NCBI RefSeq assembly: GCF_024502345.1
Contig: NZ_JALDNN010000001.1
Source of the DNA: Escherichia coli
GTDB lineage: Bacteria > Pseudomonadota > Gammaproteobacteria > Enterobacterales > Enterobacteriaceae
Strand: one strand, 5' to 3'
Length of the DNA stretch: 64,000 nucleotides
Shown piece after piece: positions 53,263-62,423 of the stretch (positions are counted from its first letter, which is position 1; each line of letters begins with the position of its first letter). The position numbers and the translations under genes are program-made. The notes below the pieces were generated by a model that was given only the letters and a program-made list of their open reading frames with translations, was not told the origin of the DNA and searched no databases.

Positions 53263-54057
53263 ATGAAACAGTATTTAGAACTGATGCAAAAAGTGCTCGA
53301 CGAAGGCACACAGAAAAACGACCGTACCGGAACCGGAACGCTTTCCATTTTTGGTCATCAGATGCGTTTTAACCTGCAGGATGGATTCCCGCTGGTGACA
53401 ACTAAACGTTGCCACCTGCGTTCCATCATCCATGAACTGCTGTGGTTTCTGCAGGGCGACACTAACATTGCTTATCTACACGAAAACAATGTCACCATCT
53501 GGGACGAATGGGCCGATGAAAACGGCGACCTCGGGCCAGTGTATGGTAAACAGTGGCGCGCCTGGCCAACGCCGGATGGTCGTCATATTGACCAGATCAC
53601 TACGGTACTGAACCAGCTGAAAAACGACCCGGATTCGCGCCGCATTATTGTTTCAGCGTGGAACGTAGGCGAACTGGATAAAATGGCGCTGGCACCGTGC
53701 CATGCGTTCTTCCAGTTCTATGTGGCAGACGGCAAACTCTCTTGCCAGCTTTATCAGCGCTCCTGTGACGTTTTCCTCGGCCTGCCGTTTAACATTGCCA
53801 GCTACGCGTTACTGGTGCATATGATGGCGCAGCAGTGTGATCTGGAAGTGGGCGATTTTGTCTGGACGGGGGGCGACACGCACCTGTACAGCAATCATAT
53901 GGATCAAACTCATCTGCAATTAAGCCGCGAACCGCGTCCGCTGCCGAAGTTGATTATCAAACGTAAACCCGAATCCATCTTCGACTACCGTTTCGAAGAC
54001 TTTGAGATTGAAGGCTACGATCCACATCCGGGCATTAAAGCGCCGGTGGCTATCTAA
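53263..54057 (+). CDS. thyA: thymidylate synthase
   Basis: 264 aa; [38 protein letters not shown]...; active-site region [10 protein letters not shown]. Confidence 0.95.
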
Positions 54058-54078
54058 TTACGAAACATCCTGCCAGAG

Positions 54079-54106
54079 CCGACGCCAGTGTGCGTCGGTT
54101 TTTTTT
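54079..54106 (+). terminator. intrinsic terminator after thyA
   Basis: stem CCGACGCCAGTGTGCGTCGG followed by TTTTTTTT. Confidence 0.6.
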
Positions 54107-54241
54107 ACCCTCCGTTAAATTCTTCGAGACGCCTTCCCGAAATTTTGCAACGTCCTGCAACGGCGTAAATAGTCCGGAAGATGCGCCGAAGAAATAGAAA
54201 CTGGCCCTCGTCTTTTTTTCTCCTCGCTCCATACTGCCGGC

Positions 54242-54712
54242 ATGAAAACACAACGTGGTTATACGCTGATTGAAACGCTGGTCGCGATGCTGATTTTGGT
54301 CATGCTAAGCGCAAGTGGACTCTATGGCTGGCAATACTGGCAGCAGTCGCAACGGCTATGGCAAACCGCCAGCCAGGCGCGGGACTATTTGCTCTATTTA
54401 CGTGAAGATGCCAACTGGCATAACCGCGACCACAGTATCAGCGTTATCAGGGAGGGGACGTTATGGTGCCTTGTGAGTTCCGCTGCTGGGGCCAATACCT
54501 GTCATGGCAGTTCACCATTGGTCTTTGTGCCACGCTGGCCCGAAGTCGAAATGAGCGACCTGACACCTTCGCTTGCTTTCTTTGGCCTGCGCAATACCGC
54601 ATGGGCCGGGCATATTCGCTTCAAAAACTCAACGGGCGAGTGGTGGCTGGTGGTTTCGCCGTGGGGAAGACTCCGGCTTTGTCAGCAAGGAGAAACAGAA
54701 GGATGCCTGTAA
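54242..54712 (+). CDS. ppdA: prepilin-type N-terminal cleavage/methylation domain protein
   Basis: 156 aa; N-terminal [13 protein letters not shown] pseudopilin leader motif. Confidence 0.85.
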
Positions 54713-55266
54713 AAGAGCAAGGTTTTTCTCTGCTGGAAGTGTTGATTGCTATGGCGATCAGTAGCGTATTGTTGCTGGGGGCTGCACGCTTTCTGCCTGC
54801 GTTACAGCGTGAAAGTTTAACGAGCACCCGTAAGCTGGCGCTGGAAGATGAAATCTGGCTGCGGGTATTTACCGTCGCGAAGCATCTCCAGAGGGCGGGT
54901 TATTGTCATGGCAGCTGTACCGGCGAAGGGCTGGAAATTGTCGGACAGGGTGACTGTATCATTGTGCAGTGGGATGCGAACAGTAACGGTATCTGGGATC
55001 GCGAACCGGTAAAAGAGTCTGACCAGATTGGATTTCGTCTGAAGGAGCATGTGCTGGAAACGCTACGCGGTGCGACATCCTGTGAAGGTAAGGGCTGGGA
55101 TAAAGTCACTAATCCGGATGCCATCATTATCGACACTTTTCAGGTCGTACGTCAGGATGTCAGCGGCTTCTCGCCGGTGTTGACGGTTAATATGCGTGCT
55201 GCCAGTAAGTCTGAACCGCAAACCGTGGTGGATGCCAGCTATAGCGTGACAGGATTCAACCTGTGA
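54703..55266 (+). CDS. ppdB: prepilin-type N-terminal cleavage/methylation domain protein
   Basis: 187 aa from the internal ATG at 54703 ([21 protein letters not shown]...); the ORF track start 54463 is rejected. Confidence 0.85.
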
Positions 55267-55670
55267 ACCGCGAAAAAGGTGTTTCGTCACTGGCTCTGGT
55301 CCTGATGCTGCTGGTTTTGGGTAGCTTGCTATTGCAAGGAATGAGTCAGCAGGATCGCAGTTTTGCCTCTCGCGTGAGCATGGAAAGTCAGTCATTGCGC
55401 CGCCAGGCCATCGTTCAGTCGGCGCTGGCGTGGGGAAAAATGCACTCCTGGCAGACGCAGCCAGCAGTTCAGTGCTCGCAGTACGCTGGAACCGATGCCC
55501 AGGTTTGTTTGCGTTTACTGGCAGATAATGAAGCCTTATTGATTGCCGGTTATGAAGGCGTTTCGTTGTGGCGAACAGGCGAAGTCATTGATGGAAAAAT
55601 TGTTTTTTCGCCACGCGGCTGGAGCGATTTTTGTCCGCTGAAAGAGGGGGCATTATGTCAGCTTCCCTGA
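55263..55670 (+). CDS. ygdB: small exported protein co-located with the ppd genes
   Basis: 135 aa, GTG start; hydrophobic N-terminal segment. Confidence 0.8.
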
Positions 55671-55978
55671 AGAATCAACAAGGCTTTAGCCTGCCGGAGG
55701 TAATGGTTGCGATGGTGCTGATGGTGATGATTGTCACTGCGTTATCGGGTATCCAGCGAACATTAATGAACAGTCTCGCCAGCAGAAACCAGTACCAACA
55801 GCTCTGGCGGCATGGTTGGCAGCAAACGCAACTGCGCGCGATTTCGCCACCTGCCAACTGGCAGGTCAACCGAATGCAGACATCGCAGGCGGGATGTGTC
55901 AGCATCAGCGTTACGCTAGTTTCACCCGGGGGCAGAGAAGGCGAGATGACCCGCCTGCATTGCCCGAATCGTCAGTAG
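55655..55978 (+). CDS. ppdC: prepilin-type N-terminal cleavage/methylation domain protein
   Basis: 107 aa from the ATG at 55655 ([21 protein letters not shown]...). Confidence 0.8.
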
Positions 55979-55990
55979 TCAGGAGCCGCT

Positions 55991-58900
55991 ATGTTAAGGG
56001 TCTACCATTCCAATCGTCTGGACGTGCTGGAAGCGTTGATGGAGTTTATTGTCGAACGCGAACGGCTGGACGATCCTTTCGAACCAGAGATGATTCTGGT
56101 GCAAAGTACCGGTATGGCGCAGTGGCTGCAAATGACCCTGTCGCAAAAGTTTGGTATTGCGGCAAACATTGATTTTCCGCTGCCAGCGAGCTTTATCTGG
56201 GATATGTTCGTCCGGGTGTTACCGGAAATCCCCAAAGAGAGCGCCTTTAACAAACAGAGCATGAGCTGGAAACTGATGACTCTGCTGCCGCAATTGCTGG
56301 AGCGCGAAGACTTTACCCTGTTGCGGCATTATCTGACTGACGATAGCGACAAGCGAAAACTGTTCCAGCTTTCCTCAAAAGCGGCGGACCTGTTTGACCA
56401 GTATCTGGTCTATCGTCCGGACTGGCTGGCACAGTGGGAAACAGGACATTTGGTTGAAGGGCTGGGAGAAGCACAGGCCTGGCAAGCCCCGTTGTGGAAG
56501 GCGCTGGTGGAATATACCCATCAACTCGGGCAACCGCGCTGGCACCGCGCCAATCTCTATCAGCGCTTTATCGAAACGCTGGAGTCCGCGACGACCTGCC
56601 CGCCGGGGTTACCTTCGCGCGTCTTTATATGCGGTATTTCCGCGTTACCGCCTGTTTATCTCCAGGCGCTACAGGCGCTGGGTAAACATATTGAAATCCA
56701 TCTCCTGTTTACCAACCCCTGCCGTTATTACTGGGGCGATATTAAAGATCCTGCTTATCTGGCGAAACTGCTGACTCGTCAGCGTCGACACAGTTTTGAA
56801 GATCGCGAATTGCCGCTATTTCGCGATAGCGAAAATGCCGGACAGCTCTTTAACAGCGATGGTGAACAGGATGTCGGCAACCCGCTGCTGGCCTCATGGG
56901 GGAAGCTTGGGCGCGACTACATTTATCTCCTTTCTGACCTGGAGAGCAGCCAGGAGCTGGACGCTTTTGTCGATGTGACGCCAGATAACCTGCTGCATAA
57001 CATTCAGTCTGACATTCTGGAACTGGAAAACCGCGCCGTTGCGGGTGTGAACATCGAAGAGTTTTCCCGTAGCGATAACAAACGCCCGCTTGATCCACTG
57101 GATAGCAGTATCACATTCCACGTTTGCCATAGCCCGCAGCGTGAAGTTGAAGTTTTACACGATCGCTTGCTGGCGATGCTGGAGGAAGACCCGACACTTA
57201 CTCCGCGCGACATCATCGTGATGGTGGCTGATATCGACAGCTACAGTCCGTTTATTCAGGCAGTGTTTGGTAGCGCACCTGCGGATCGTTACCTGCCTTA
57301 CGCCATTTCCGACCGTCGTGCGCGGCAGTCACATCCGGTACTGGAAGCGTTTATCAGCCTGTTATCACTGCCTGACAGTCGCTTTGTGTCAGAGGATGTG
57401 CTGGCGCTGCTGGATGTGCCGGTGCTGGCGGCGCGGTTTGACATCACCGAAGAAGGGCTGCGTTATTTACGCCAGTGGGTCAACGAGTCCGGCATTCGTT
57501 GGGGGATAGATGACGACAACGTTCGCGAGCTGGAACTCCCCGCTACCGGTCAACACACCTGGCGGTTTGGCCTGACGCGCATGTTGCTGGGTTACGCGAT
57601 GGAGAGCGCGCAGGGCGAGTGGCAATCGGTTCTACCTTATGATGAATCGAGCGGCTTAATTGCAGAACTGGTGGGGCATCTGGCTTCCCTGCTAATGCAG
57701 CTAAACATCTGGCGTCGCGGGCTGGCACAGGAGCGTCCGCTAGAAGAGTGGTTGCCGGTTTGTCGCGATATGCTCAACGCCTTCTTCCTGCCGGATGCGG
57801 AAACCGAAGCGGCGATGACGCTGATCGAACAACAATGGCAGGCGATTATCGCCGAAGGTTTAGGTGCGCAGTATGGCGACGCGGTGCCGCTGTCACTATT
57901 GCGTGATGAACTGGCACAGCGTCTGGATCAAGAACGTATCAGCCAGCGTTTTCTCGCCGGACCGGTTAACATTTGTACTCTGATGCCAATGCGTTCAATT
58001 CCGTTCAAAGTGGTTTGCCTGCTGGGAATGAACGACGGCGTTTATCCACGTCAGCTTGCGCCATTGGGCTTTGACCTGATGAGCCAGAAACCGAAGCGTG
58101 GCGACCGTAGCCGTCGCGATGACGACCGCTACCTGTTCCTGGAAGCGTTAATTTCCGCGCAGCAAAAACTCTATATCAGCTATATCGGGCGTTCCATTCA
58201 GGATAACAGTGAACGTTTCCCGTCGGTACTGGTGCAGGAACTGATCGACTACATCGGGCAAAGTCATTATCTACCGGGCGATGAAGCGCTCAACTGTGAT
58301 GAAAGCGAGGCAAGGGTAAAAGCGCATCTTACTTGCCTCCATACCCGGATGCCGTTTGATCCGCAAAACTACCAGCCAGGCGAACGACAAAGCTATGCTC
58401 GTGAATGGCTACCTGCGGCCAGCCAGGCTGGTAAAGCACATTCTGAATTTGTTCAGCCGCTGCCGTTTACCTTACCGGAAACCGTGCCGCTGGAAACGCT
58501 ACAACGATTCTGGGCACATCCGGTGCGGGCGTTCTTCCAGATGCGTTTGCAGGTGAACTTCCGTACTGAAGACAGCGAAATCCCAGACACCGAGCCATTT
58601 ATTCTGGAAGGGCTTAGCCGTTATCAAATCAATCAGCAGTTATTGAATGCACTGGTTGAGCAGGATGATGCCGAACGCTTGTTCCGCCGCTTCCGGGCGG
58701 CAGGGGATTTACCGTATGGCGCTTTTGGTGAAATTTTCTGGGAAACACAGTGCCAGGAGATGCAGCAGCTTGCCGACAGAGTCATTGCCTGTCGCCAGCC
58801 TGGGCAGAGTATGGAAATTGATCTCGCCTGCAACGGTGTGCAGATAACTGGCTGGTTGCCGCAGGTGCAGCCGGATGGCCTGTTGCGCTGGCGTCCCTCT

Positions 58901-59359
58901 TTATTAAGTGTGGCGCAGGGAATGCAACTTTGGCTGGAACACCTTGTCTACTGTGCCAGCGGTGGTAATGGTGAAAGTCGCCTTTTTCTACGCAAAGACG
59001 GCGAGTGGCGTTTTCCGCCGCTTGCAGCCGAACAGGCTTTGCATTACCTCTCACAACTGATTGAGGGGTATCGTGAAGGGATGTCCGCGCCATTGCTGGT
59101 GTTACCTGAAAGTGGCGGCGCGTGGCTAAAAACCTGTTATGACGCGCAAAACGATGCCATGCTGGATGACGATTCCACGTTGCAAAAAGCCCGTACGAAA
59201 TTCCTTCAGGCTTACGAAGGCAACATGATGGTGCGTGGCGAAGGTGATGATATCTGGTATCAAAGGCTCTGGCGGCAATTAACACCAGAGACAATGGAGG
59301 CCATCGTTGAACAGTCGCAACGTTTCCTGTTACCGCTGTTTCGCTTTAATCAGTCATGA
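55991..59359 (+). CDS. recC: exodeoxyribonuclease V gamma subunit
   Basis: 1122 aa; MLRVYHSNRLDVLEALMEFIVERERLDDPFEPEMILVQSTGMAQWLQ... Confidence 0.95.
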   Translation: MLRVYHSNRLDVLEALMEFIVERERLDDPFEPEMILVQSTGMAQWLQMTLSQKFGIAANIDFPLPASFIWDMFVRVLPEIPKESAFNKQSMSWKLMTLLPQLLEREDFTLLRHYLTDDSDKRKLFQLSSKAADLFDQYLVYRPDWLAQWETGHLVEGLGEAQAWQAPLWKALVEYTHQLGQPRWHRANLYQRFIETLESATTCPPGLPSRVFICGISALPPVYLQALQALGKHIEIHLLFTNPCRYYWGDIKDPAYLAKLLTRQRRHSFEDRELPLFRDSENAGQLFNSDGEQDVGNPLLASWGKLGRDYIYLLSDLESSQELDAFVDVTPDNLLHNIQSDILELENRAVAGVNIEEFSRSDNKRPLDPLDSSITFHVCHSPQREVEVLHDRLLAMLEEDPTLTPRDIIVMVADIDSYSPFIQAVFGSAPADRYLPYAISDRRARQSHPVLEAFISLLSLPDSRFVSEDVLALLDVPVLAARFDITEEGLRYLRQWVNESGIRWGIDDDNVRELELPATGQHTWRFGLTRMLLGYAMESAQGEWQSVLPYDESSGLIAELVGHLASLLMQLNIWRRGLAQERPLEEWLPVCRDMLNAFFLPDAETEAAMTLIEQQWQAIIAEGLGAQYGDAVPLSLLRDELAQRLDQERISQRFLAGPVNICTLMPMRSIPFKVVCLLGMNDGVYPRQLAPLGFDLMSQKPKRGDRSRRDDDRYLFLEALISAQQKLYISYIGRSIQDNSERFPSVLVQELIDYIGQSHYLPGDEALNCDESEARVKAHLTCLHTRMPFDPQNYQPGERQSYAREWLPAASQAGKAHSEFVQPLPFTLPETVPLETLQRFWAHPVRAFFQMRLQVNFRTEDSEIPDTEPFILEGLSRYQINQQLLNALVEQDDAERLFRRFRAAGDLPYGAFGEIFWETQCQEMQQLADRVIACRQPGQSMEIDLACNGVQITGWLPQVQPDGLLRWRPSLLSVAQGMQLWLEHLVYCASGGNGESRLFLRKDGEWRFPPLAAEQALHYLSQLIEGYREGMSAPLLVLPESGGAWLKTCYDAQNDAMLDDDSTLQKARTKFLQAYEGNMMVRGEGDDIWYQRLWRQLTPETMEAIVEQSQRFLLPLFRFNQS

Positions 59360-59534
59360 GTGCTGTATAAAAATTGCGCAATCTATCCGCTTACTTTATG
59401 ATGCGCACCAGTCACGGACTGATGGTTATATAAACATAGGCTGACTCGTGCAGCACAAGATTAAATTCTGGCAGATGATTTGCGTTAACGTGTTGAATCT
59501 GGACAGAAAATTAAGTTGATTATGAGGTCCGTGA

Positions 59535-62423
59535 ATGCCCCGCAGCACCTGGTTCAAAGCATTATTGTTGTTAGTTGCCCTTTGGGCACCCTTAAGTCAG
59601 GCAGAAACGGGATGGCAGCCGATTCAGGAAACCATCCGTAAAAGTGATAAAGATAACCGCCAGTATCAGGCTATACGTCTGGATAACGGTATGGTGGTCT
59701 TGCTGGTTTCTGATCCGCAGGCAGTTAAATCGCTCTCGGCGCTGGTGGTGCCCGTTGGGTCGCTGGAAGATCCCGAGGCGTACCAGGGGCTGGCACATTA
59801 CCTTGAACATATGAGTCTGATGGGGTCGAAAAAGTACCCGCAGGCTGACAGTCTGGCCGAATATCTCAAAATGCACGGCGGTAGTCACAATGCCAGCACT
59901 GCGCCGTATCGCACGGCTTTCTATCTGGAAGTTGAGAACGACGCCTTGCCTGGTGCGGTAGACCGCCTGGCTGATGCTATTGCAGAACCCTTGCTCGACA
60001 AGAAATACGCCGAACGTGAGCGTAATGCAGTGAACGCTGAATTAACCATGGCGCGTACGCGTGACGGGATGCGCATGGCACAGGTCAGCGCAGAAACCAT
60101 TAACCCGGCACACCCCGGTTCAAAGTTTTCTGGTGGTAACCTCGAAACTTTAAGCGACAAACCTGGTAATCCGGTGCAGCAGGCGCTGAAAGATTTCCAC
60201 GAGAAGTACTATTCCGCCAATCTGATGAAGGCGGTTATTTACAGCAATAAACCGCTGCCGGAGTTGGCAAAAATGGCGGCGGACACCTTTGGTCGCGTGC
60301 CGAACAAAGAGAGCAAAAAACCGGAAATCACCGTGCCGGTAGTCACCGACGCGCAAAAGGGCATTATCATTCATTACGTCCCGGCGCTGCCGCGTAAAGT
60401 GTTGCGCGTAGAGTTTCGTATTGATAACAACTCGGCGAAATTCCGTAGCAAAACCGATGAATTGATTACCTATCTGATTGGTAATCGCAGCCCAGGTACA
60501 CTTTCCGACTGGCTGCAAAAGCAGGGATTAGTTGAGGGCATTAGCGCCAACTCCGATCCTATCGTCAACGGCAACAGCGGCGTATTAGCGATCTCTGCGT
60601 CTTTAACCGATAAAGGTCTGGCGAATCGCGATCAGGTTGTGGCGGCTATTTTTAGCTACCTCAATTTGTTACGTGAAAAAGGGATCGATAAACAATACTT
60701 CGATGAACTGGCGAATGTGCTGGATATCGACTTCCGTTATCCGTCAATCACCCGTGATATGGATTACGTCGAATGGCTGGCAGATACCATGATTCGCGTT
60801 CCTGTTGAGCATACGCTGGATGCAGTCAATATTGCCGATCGGTACGATGCTAAAGCAGTAAAGGAACGTCTGGCGATGATGACGCCGCAGAATGCGCGTA
60901 TCTGGTATATCAGCCCGAAAGAGCCGCACAACAAAACGGCTTACTTTGTCGATGCGCCGTATCAGGTCGATAAAATCAGCGCACAAACTTTCGCCGACTG
61001 GCAGAAAAAAGCCGCCGACATTGCGCTCTCTTTGCCAGAGCTTAACCCTTATATTCCTGACGATTTCTCGCTGATTAAGTCAGAGAAGAAATACGACCAT
61101 CCAGAGCTGATTGTTGATGAGTCGAATCTGCGCGTGGTGTATGCGCCAAGCCGTTATTTTTCCAGCGAACCCAAAGCTGATGTCAGCCTGATTTTGCGTA
61201 ATCCGAAAGCCATGGACAGCGCCAGCAATCAGGTGATGTTTGCGCTCAATGATTATCTCGCAGGGCTGGCGCTTGATCAGTTAAGCAACCAGGCGTCGGT
61301 TGGTGGCATAAGTTTTTCCACCAACGCTAACAACGGCCTTATGGTTAATGCTAATGGTTACACCCAGCGTCTGCCGCAGCTGTTCCAGGCATTGCTCGAG
61401 GGCTACTTTAACTATACCGCTACGGAAGATCAGCTTGAGCAGGCGAAGTCCTGGTATAACCAGATGATGGATTCCGCAGAAAAGGGTAAAGCGTTTGAGC
61501 AGGCGATTATGCCCGCGCAGATGCTCTCGCAAGTGCCGTACTTCTCGCGAGATGAACGGCGTAAAATTTTGCCCTCCATTACGTTGAAAGAGGTGCTGGC
61601 TTATCGCGACGCCTTAAAATCAGGGGCTCGACCAGAGTTTATGGTTATCGGCAACATGACCGAGGCCCAGGCAACAACGCTGGCACGCGATGTGCAAAAA
61701 CAGTTGGGCGCTGATGGTTCAGAGTGGTGTCGAAACAAAGATGTAGTGGTCGATAAAAAACAATCCGTCATCTTTGAAAAAGCTGGTAACAGCACCGACT
61801 CCGCACTGGCAGCGGTATTTGTACCGACTGGCTACGATGAATACACCAGCTCAGCCTATAGCTCTCTGTTGGGGCAGATCGTACAGCCGTGGTTCTACAA
61901 TCAGTTGCGTACTGAAGAACAATTGGGCTATGCCGTGTTTGCATTTCCAATGAGCGTGGGGCGTCAGTGGGGCATGGGCTTCCTTTTGCAAAGCAATGAT
62001 AAACAGCCTTCCTTCTTGTGGGAGCGTTACAAGGCGTTTTTCCCAACCGCAGAGGCAAAATTGCGGGCGATGAAGCCAGAAGAGTTTGCGCAAATCCAGC
62101 AGGCGGTAATTACCCAGATGCTGCAGGCACCGCAAACGCTCGGCGAAGAAGCATCGAAGTTAAGTAAAGATTTCGATCGCGGCAATATGCGCTTCGATTC
62201 GCGTGATAAAATCGTGGCCCAGATAAAACTGCTGACGCCGCAAAAACTTGCTGATTTCTTCCATCAGGCGGTGGTCGAGCCGCAAGGCATGGCTATTCTG
62301 TCGCAGATTTCCGGCAGCCAGAACGGGAAAGCCGAATATGTGCATCCTGAAGGCTGGAAAGTGTGGGAGAACGTCAGCGCGTTGCAGCAAACAATGCCCC
62401 TGATGAGTGAAAAGAATGAGTGA
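59535..62423 (+). CDS. ptrA: protease III (pitrilysin, M16 family)
   Basis: 962 aa; signal peptide and inverted zinc-binding HxxEH motif (HYLEHM). Confidence 0.95.
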   Translation: MPRSTWFKALLLLVALWAPLSQAETGWQPIQETIRKSDKDNRQYQAIRLDNGMVVLLVSDPQAVKSLSALVVPVGSLEDPEAYQGLAHYLEHMSLMGSKKYPQADSLAEYLKMHGGSHNASTAPYRTAFYLEVENDALPGAVDRLADAIAEPLLDKKYAERERNAVNAELTMARTRDGMRMAQVSAETINPAHPGSKFSGGNLETLSDKPGNPVQQALKDFHEKYYSANLMKAVIYSNKPLPELAKMAADTFGRVPNKESKKPEITVPVVTDAQKGIIIHYVPALPRKVLRVEFRIDNNSAKFRSKTDELITYLIGNRSPGTLSDWLQKQGLVEGISANSDPIVNGNSGVLAISASLTDKGLANRDQVVAAIFSYLNLLREKGIDKQYFDELANVLDIDFRYPSITRDMDYVEWLADTMIRVPVEHTLDAVNIADRYDAKAVKERLAMMTPQNARIWYISPKEPHNKTAYFVDAPYQVDKISAQTFADWQKKAADIALSLPELNPYIPDDFSLIKSEKKYDHPELIVDESNLRVVYAPSRYFSSEPKADVSLILRNPKAMDSASNQVMFALNDYLAGLALDQLSNQASVGGISFSTNANNGLMVNANGYTQRLPQLFQALLEGYFNYTATEDQLEQAKSWYNQMMDSAEKGKAFEQAIMPAQMLSQVPYFSRDERRKILPSITLKEVLAYRDALKSGARPEFMVIGNMTEAQATTLARDVQKQLGADGSEWCRNKDVVVDKKQSVIFEKAGNSTDSALAAVFVPTGYDEYTSSAYSSLLGQIVQPWFYNQLRTEEQLGYAVFAFPMSVGRQWGMGFLLQSNDKQPSFLWERYKAFFPTAEAKLRAMKPEEFAQIQQAVITQMLQAPQTLGEEASKLSKDFDRGNMRFDSRDKIVAQIKLLTPQKLADFFHQAVVEPQGMAILSQISGSQNGKAEYVHPEGWKVWENVSALQQTMPLMSEKNE

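Follow-up and report, generated by a model that had tools for sequence, protein, structure and literature searches.

Minor-pilin genes ppdA-ppdB-ygdB-ppdC beside recC in Escherichia coli: a conserved synteny with a candidate recC promoter inside ppdC

We analyzed a 64,000-nucleotide (nt) stretch of Escherichia coli DNA (contig NZ_JALDNN010000001.1; hereafter the window) in which four small prepilin-like genes, ppdA, ppdB, ygdB and ppdC, are packed directly against recC, the gene for the gamma subunit of RecBCD. The explanation that best accounts for the locus, and which we consider likely when taken as a whole, is that the four genes form a minor-pilin operon with a predicted leaderless ppdA mRNA, that transcripts of this operon would read through into recC, that recC has a predicted promoter of its own inside ppdC, and that the adjacency of the pilin genes and recC is a conserved synteny. 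The genes, their role as minor pilins, their control by Sxy and their position next to recC have all been published before. The locus itself is ordinary and known, and the analysis makes two small additions that derive from sequence conservation, namely a predicted recC promoter in ppdC codons 75-86 and a predicted leaderless ppdA mRNA. It also corrects the view of recC as the simple last cistron of a pilin operon.

The gene order on the plus strand is ptsP-lgt-thyA-ppdA-ppdB-ygdB-ppdC-recC-ptrA, and all features described below lie on this strand of the window unless stated otherwise. The genes ppdA (54242-54712), ppdB (54703-55266), ygdB (55263-55670, with a GTG start) and ppdC (55655-55978) encode proteins of 156, 187, 135 and 107 amino acids (aa), respectively, and recC (55991-59359) encodes a protein of 1122 aa. 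Successive pilin genes overlap by 10 nt (ppdA/ppdB), 4 nt (ppdB/ygdB, where the GTG start shares bases with the ppdB stop in GTGA) and 16 nt (ygdB/ppdC). The spacer between ppdC and recC measures 12 nt (55979-55990) and contains the Shine-Dalgarno sequence of recC, AGGAG at 55981-55985, of which GGAG is invariant in the Enterobacteriaceae alignment. The gene limits match the RefSeq annotation of an identical E. coli genome, which confirmed the five open reading frames (ORFs) as they had been placed in an earlier reading of this DNA (the original prediction), except that the ppdC-recC gap had been given there as 13 bp. The 2.1-kb stretch from 54000 to 56100 is 100% identical to strain WEC. Compared to MG1655, 21 substitutions were found in 54100-56039, none of them in ppdA and none after 55816; window coordinates are converted to the minus strand of NC_000913.3 by subtracting them from 3,018,419.

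Complete genomes of E. coli have the locus in 5425 of 5426 cases, and every free-living member of Enterobacterales in the sample has it as well, so that the arrangement is not due to chance, and the statement in the original prediction that it is established was borne out. In total, 5428 matching places were counted in the complete E. coli genomes, one of them on a plasmid, and one genome lacked the locus. Public assemblies also contain YgdB-PpdC fusion ORFs of 228-237 aa (P0008, P0018, P0035, and P0039, with PF10713, PF07963, and PF12528), which presumably represent frameshifts or assembly errors in the 16-nt overlap of ygdB and ppdC.

The candidate recC promoter emerged from an alignment of the 3'-terminal 200 nt of ppdC across 20 genera of Enterobacteriaceae, in which two boxes, GCAGACA (55876-55882) and GATGTGTCAGCATC (55893-55906), are invariant at the nucleotide level. 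At fixed spacing the boxes fit the pattern of a -35 element (xxGACA), 17 nt, TGn and a -10 element (nAnnAT). The candidate promoter (55877-55913) would consist of the -35 hexamer CAGACA (55877-55882), a 17-nt spacer, TG at 55897-55898 and the -10 hexamer CAGCAT (55900-55905), with an invariant A at 55913 (NC_000913.3 2,962,506, minus strand) as the predicted start of a transcript with a 78-nt leader. PpdC is otherwise a fast-evolving protein, and invariance at synonymous sites is confined to Q77-T78 and C83-I86: the same codon is used at Q77, T78, C83, V84, S85, and I86 in 96-100% of 23-25 genomes, and the other invariant residues of PpdC are encoded by mixed codons (40-80%). Codon identity of at least 95% was found in 6 of 18 degenerate columns with a conserved amino acid in PpdC versus 1 of 91 in PpdA, PpdB, and YgdB together, and the stretch CVSI is the most codon-conserved window of four codons in the whole interval from thyA to the 5' part of recC. 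The box TGTGTCAGCATC (55895-55906) is exact in 28 Enterobacteriaceae loci and is retained in two loci in which it lies 128 and 187 nt from the recC ATG instead of 84 nt. The other families, where an intergenic promoter would fit, lack the box. This pattern of conservation leads us to favor, with a little more confidence than an even chance would warrant, the presence of a weak sigma-70 promoter of the extended -10 type for recC within ppdC. In Enterobacteriaceae such a promoter would supply a low constitutive level of RecC.

Several observations weigh against a promoter at this position. The promoter consensus by itself occurs at chance frequency (2 observed versus 1.9 expected per 64 kb), and the stock promoter scan did not flag the candidate. 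Moreover, GATGTGTCAGCATC is a small palindrome of 14 bp that reaches 1-2 nt past the promoter elements, and CAGACA and TGTCAG form an imperfect inverted repeat, which makes a protein-binding site or an RNA element possible. The boxes could then be the operator of a dimeric protein (GCAGACA-N14-TGTCAGC or GATG-N6-CATC), or they could function in the RNA, as a hairpin, processing site or small RNA/Hfq target that controls recC or ppdC. The borders of the palindrome coincide with those of the conserved block, and the boxes are fixed in the ppdC reading frame and variable in their distance to the recC ATG, as would be expected of such an element. An RNA element finds little in its favor in the minimum-energy fold, which bypasses the repeat, has no unusual stability (z -1.4) and led us to reject a hairpin of the two boxes, and no Rfam family matched across 53900-56300 at E-values up to 1. 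The repeat arms are invariant, so there is no covariation that could indicate pairing. All bases required for the -35 GACA, the TG and positions A2 and T6 of the -10 hexamer are invariant, the 17-nt spacing is optimal, and the A at +1 is invariant as well. We therefore regard a non-promoter function of the boxes as unlikely. Two other promoter placements were also rejected. In an antisense promoter with CTGACA as a minus-strand -35 element the matching -10 element lacks A2 and is not conserved, and for an alternative -10 hexamer TACGCT (55912-55917) the -35 element would fall in a variable stretch and the invariant box would be left unexplained.

No credible terminator was found between ppdA and recC: a scan of 53800-59700 gave six weak matches versus 7.5 expected from shuffled sequences. 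The fold of the ppdC 3' end (55920-55995) is not unusually stable (z 0.03), and the stock promoter and terminator scan detected nothing significant on the plus strand in the operon. With no terminator behind ppdC, transcription initiated at the ppdA promoter is expected to extend into recC. In the original prediction, the packing of the genes was taken to imply co-transcription of the pilin genes with recC, and an independent recC promoter combined with a terminator between ppdC and recC was named as the finding that would speak against it. Only the first of these two, as a candidate, was detected. The close packing and the lack of a terminator agree with co-transcription, which is probably not the normal mode of recC expression, as indicated by the promoter-like element in ppdC and by the treatment of recC as its own operon in the recBCD literature (PMC12342828).

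A stricter form of co-transcription would be a single obligate operon. Here recC would lack a promoter and be expressed solely as the fifth cistron of the ppdA mRNA, which would tie recombination capacity to pilin expression. The common strand, the 12-nt spacer and the absence of a terminator are what such an operon would show, the 12-nt junction with AGGAG is present in 19 of 29 Enterobacteriaceae loci, and ppdAB-ygdB-ppdC-recC has been handled as one operon (PMC3936743), which counts against a separate recC unit. Against this, CRP-S genes show virtually no expression without Sxy (PMC1635313; PMC3330819), yet RecBCD is made constitutively. The nucleotide-conserved, promoter-like element within ppdC and the variation of the junction among families also argue against an obligate operon, and we consider it quite improbable.

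This variation was determined in a RecC-anchored scan with one genome per species, of which the best 80 loci (Enterobacterales, Orbaceae, and Vibrionaceae) were compared. The four genes precede recC in the same order and on the same strand in all free-living members sampled of seven families: Enterobacteriaceae, Erwiniaceae, Yersiniaceae, Pectobacteriaceae, Hafniaceae, Morganellaceae, and Budviciaceae. On a short contig of Plesiomonas, only the last, ppdC-like gene is visible before recC. No prepilin gene was found upstream of recC in 12 Vibrionaceae loci, five Orbaceae loci, reduced endosymbionts and two marine gammaproteobacterial contigs. For Pasteurellaceae, the linkage is taken from the literature (PMC1635313). 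Across families the spacer between ppdC and recC ranges from -23 to +351 nt, and the tight junction is thus not kept wherever the gene pair is kept. The spacer is 12 nt in most Enterobacteriaceae loci (range 7-118 nt), and in Morganellaceae the two genes overlap, by 23 nt (L038, L039, L040, L047, L057, and L063) or, in Xenorhabdus (L041), by 8 nt. It measures 70-98 nt in Hafniaceae, 31-325 nt in Pectobacteriaceae, 75-351 nt in Erwiniaceae and 10-194 nt in Yersiniaceae, and outside Enterobacteriaceae and Morganellaceae all spacers are 31-351 nt except for 10 nt in Serratia plymuthica. Tight packing is therefore specific to Enterobacteriaceae and Morganellaceae. The Morganellaceae junction is even tighter than that of E. 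coli, and no equivalent of the TGTGTCAGCATC box was seen there.

In two genomes ppdC and recC are separated by an unrelated gene. Budvicia aquatica has a 393-aa ORF on the opposite strand (L034, 5537-6718), which is old-yellow-enzyme-like as judged from its N-terminal sequence, and Erwinia mallotivora has a 261-aa ORF with a signal-peptide-like N-terminus (L054, 6107-6892). These insertions indicate that the linkage is breakable, and since the spacer varies and is twice interrupted, the adjacency of the ppd genes and recC is better described as an old synteny of Enterobacterales (and, by the literature, of Pasteurellaceae) than as an obligate operon. In the metagenomic gammaproteobacterium L086 (1-2569), a cluster of gspF, gspG and N_methyl genes resembling a type II secretion system (T2SS) occupies the opposite strand no more than 4 kb upstream of recC, probably by coincidence.

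The four proteins together make up a core minor-pilin set, with four clustered genes, one per class, and one subunit without Glu5. PpdA, PpdB, and PpdC carry class III signal peptides, that is, a short basic leader ending in Gly, followed by Phe, Tyr or Met at +1, Glu at +5 and about 20 hydrophobic residues. The leader MKTQRG precedes YTLIE in PpdA, MPVKEQG precedes FSLLE in PpdB, and the leader of PpdC ends before FSLPE. All three match Pfam N_methyl (PF07963; E-values of 3.3e-7 for PpdA, 6.5e-9 for PpdB and 9e-8 for PpdC) and score above the TIGR02532 cut-off. YgdB gave no N_methyl or TIGR02532 match, and its sole Pfam match is DUF2509 (5.1e-40). Its N-terminus, MNREKG followed by VSSLALV, retains the Gly and the hydrophobic helix and lacks Phe at +1 and Glu at +5, as does YgdB in all 25 aligned orthologs. 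Glu5 is characteristically missing in PilX and GspK homologs (PMC7541494), and a motif-poor YgdB is the expected exception for this class. The predicted model of YgdB has a pilin fold with a long N-terminal alpha-helix on an antiparallel beta-sheet. The original prediction had ascribed pseudopilin leader motifs to all four proteins; these are canonical in PpdA, PpdB, and PpdC and degenerate in YgdB, for which it is the modeled fold that points to a pilin.

With respect to class, structure comparison assigns PpdB to the J class (GspJ), and GspI, GspJ, and GspK are the structural neighbors of the proteins. The assignments of PpdA to the H class and PpdC to the I class rest on weak hidden Markov model matches and a published table (PMC7248040). 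PpdA matches NCBIfam PRK10506 at 1.1e-74 and GspH weakly at 1.4e-3, the GspJ match is also weak, and PpdC matches T2SSppdC (PF12528) at 4.5e-30. A sequence search of the PDB with the four proteins returned a single marginal match, of PpdB to TTHA1219 (E-value 0.042). In the published table, PpdA is equated with FimU and GspH, PpdC with PilV and GspI, PpdB with PilW and GspJ, and YgdB with PilX and GspK (review PMC7248040, Table 1).

The original prediction had called the function of these proteins unclear, which is outdated. Deletion of the four genes abolishes pilus assembly in enterohaemorrhagic E. coli (cited in review PMC7248040), and a reconstituted E. coli pilus system includes the four as minor pilins together with hofBC, hofMNOPQ, gspO, and ppdD (10.1101/856302). 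The presence of four prepilin-peptidase-dependent genes beside recC in Enterobacteriaceae and Pasteurellaceae was described by Cameron and Redfield 2006 (PMC1635313), who equated the E. coli genes with the CRP-S-regulated pulG-HI0941 (comNOPQ) operon of Haemophilus influenzae. A 2025 paper (PMC12616744) again reported the linkage to recC and stated, citing Sinha 2009 and Jaskolska & Gerdes 2015, that the E. coli operon is Sxy-regulated with ppdA most strongly induced. Natural transformation of E. coli has so far not been obtained (PMC3330819). It is highly improbable that the four proteins are T2SS pseudopilins instead of pilus or competence components, as could be read from the Pfam name T2SSppdC, the weak GspH and GspJ matches and the structural neighbors, because T2SS and type IVa pili have homologous core minor subunits that fold matches cannot tell apart, the window contains no T2SS genes near the cluster, the literature groups the genes with PpdD and Hof and reports a pilus-assembly defect upon deletion (PMC7248040, 10.1101/856302), and the H. 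influenzae orthologs are needed for DNA uptake (PMC12616744).

We propose ppdA-ppdB-ygdB-ppdC to be the operon for the core minor pilins of the type IVa pilus or DNA-uptake fiber encoded on the E. coli chromosome, with PpdD as the major pilin and HofBC, HofMNOPQ, and a prepilin peptidase as the machinery. The GspH-, GspJ-, GspK-, and GspI-class products would be cut by the prepilin peptidase and may form a tip complex in the inner membrane that primes polymerization of PpdD, with YgdB, which lacks Glu5, capping the complex. The overlapping stops and starts would couple translation of the four genes, which fits a stoichiometric complex. The operon would be off in ordinary culture and turned on by Sxy together with cyclic AMP-CRP. 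Induced transcripts would then read through into recC, and recC would not depend on this read-through.

Upstream of ppdA, thyA ends in a strong intrinsic terminator (54075-54107) with an 11-bp GC-rich stem followed by U8 (-16.6 kcal/mol, z -3.1), which insulates thyA from the ppd operon. Its hairpin is kept with compensatory changes in the alignment of 20 Enterobacteriaceae genera. Between the terminator and ppdA lie blocks of invariant or nearly invariant columns (54134-54160), TTCC at 54134-54137 and TGCAA at 54146-54150 and again at 54156-54160. The three blocks are about 10-12 bp apart, and TGCAA is repeated in direct rather than palindromic orientation. This region is a candidate CRP-S/Sxy activator region. 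The sequence TTTTGCAA matches 7 of 8 positions of the published CRP-S half-site T1T2T3T4G5C6G7A8, and the TTCC...TTGCA pair is centered at -100.5 from the predicted ppdA start, which corresponds to -100, reported along with -62, -73 and the half-site consensus as a class I position of H. influenzae sites (PMC1635313). A full CRP-S site comprises 22 bp with TGCGA-N6-TCGCA, C6/G17 and a class I position; that no such palindrome was found upstream of ppdA weighs against the assignment. The best matches agreed at 6-7 of 10 positions and lay partly inside the thyA terminator, and no site was assigned.

The start of ppdA itself has no Shine-Dalgarno sequence. A -10-like hexamer, CATACT (54230-54235), lies exactly at -12 to -7 from the A of the ATG, and 47 of 48 loci in five Enterobacterales families share its A-11/T-7 signature, compared to 9.7% of random positions. 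In these 48 loci a Shine-Dalgarno-like 4-mer occurs once, versus in all three Hafniaceae loci, which lack the hexamer. Because the hexamer geometry is conserved, no Shine-Dalgarno sequence is present and Hafniaceae show the reverse pattern, the ppdA mRNA is probably leaderless, with the transcript predicted to start at the A of the AUG (54242; NC_000913.3 2,964,177, minus strand).

The original prediction had also described the reason for the linkage to recC as unexplained, and this statement still holds. One conceivable reason, which we consider a long shot, is that the ppdC-recC junction acts as a two-input control point, at which a weak constitutive promoter written into ppdC codons, the source of the strongest synonymous constraint in the region, would be joined by Sxy-induced read-through from the leaderless ppdA transcript. 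This read-through would raise RecC alone, since recB and recD are located downstream of ptrA and of the promoter of ptrA. If this is true, the subunit balance of RecBCD would shift during DNA uptake and change the fate of incoming DNA, and two-input control would explain why the linkage of pilin genes to recC persists in Enterobacterales and Pasteurellaceae. In practical terms, deleting or recoding ppdC, as in genome reduction or in a nanowire chassis, could unintentionally alter RecBCD levels. The analysis also maps the limits of the linkage, which was seen in every free-living member of Enterobacterales that was sampled and in neither Vibrionaceae nor Orbaceae.

The surroundings of recC show some further features. 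The ptrA gene (pitrilysin; 59535-62423) lies between recC and recB and begins after a gap of 175 nt behind recC. It is seen in the literature as an insertion into an ancestral recC-recB-recD order, and the contiguous form of this order is present in the marine loci L085 and L086. Chi sites (GCTGGTGG) occur 11 times in the window, all on the plus strand, versus 2.1 expected (417, 10413, 16103, 26380, 41994, 44876, 45218, 54646, 56503, 59741, and 62592). One of them is located within ppdA and another within recC itself. Such a strand-biased excess of Chi is the usual genome-wide pattern.

The closest parallels to the four genes are the core minor pilins of type IVa pili, FimU-PilV-PilW-PilX of Pseudomonas aeruginosa and PilH-I-J-K of Neisseria, which likewise come from a cluster of four small genes, carry class III signal peptides and include one member without Glu5, and which prime assembly and sit at the pilus tip; the E. 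coli four have been equated with them (PMC7248040). The E. coli cluster differs from these sets in its order, H-J-K-I instead of H-I-J-K, in having no PilY1 or PilE gene attached, in its small YgdB (135 aa), in being silent without Sxy and in abutting recC. Compared to GspH-I-J-K of the T2SS (GspIJK of enterotoxigenic E. coli, PDB 3CI0), the cluster lies outside any gsp operon, its partner filament is the PpdD pilus, and YgdB lacks the large insertion domain of GspK. The comNOPQ genes of H. influenzae (HI0938-HI0941) are also four prepilin-like genes upstream of recC in the same orientation and belong to the CRP-S/Sxy regulon; they and the ppd genes are held to be orthologous by synteny, BLAST similarity being undetectable (PMC1635313; PMC12616744). 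The H. influenzae genes are proven to be necessary for DNA uptake, in contrast to E. coli, in which natural transformation has not been obtained (PMC3330819). The competence pilins of Thermus thermophilus (TTHA1218-1222) belong to a distant phylum and have a different gene context. With respect to the two predicted transcript starts, ppdA, with its ATG 7 nt behind a -10 hexamer and no Shine-Dalgarno sequence, resembles leaderless mRNAs such as lambda cI, and the recC candidate inside ppdC codons resembles promoters embedded in upstream coding sequence. Compared to those known examples, the ppdA and recC cases are predictions from conservation only.

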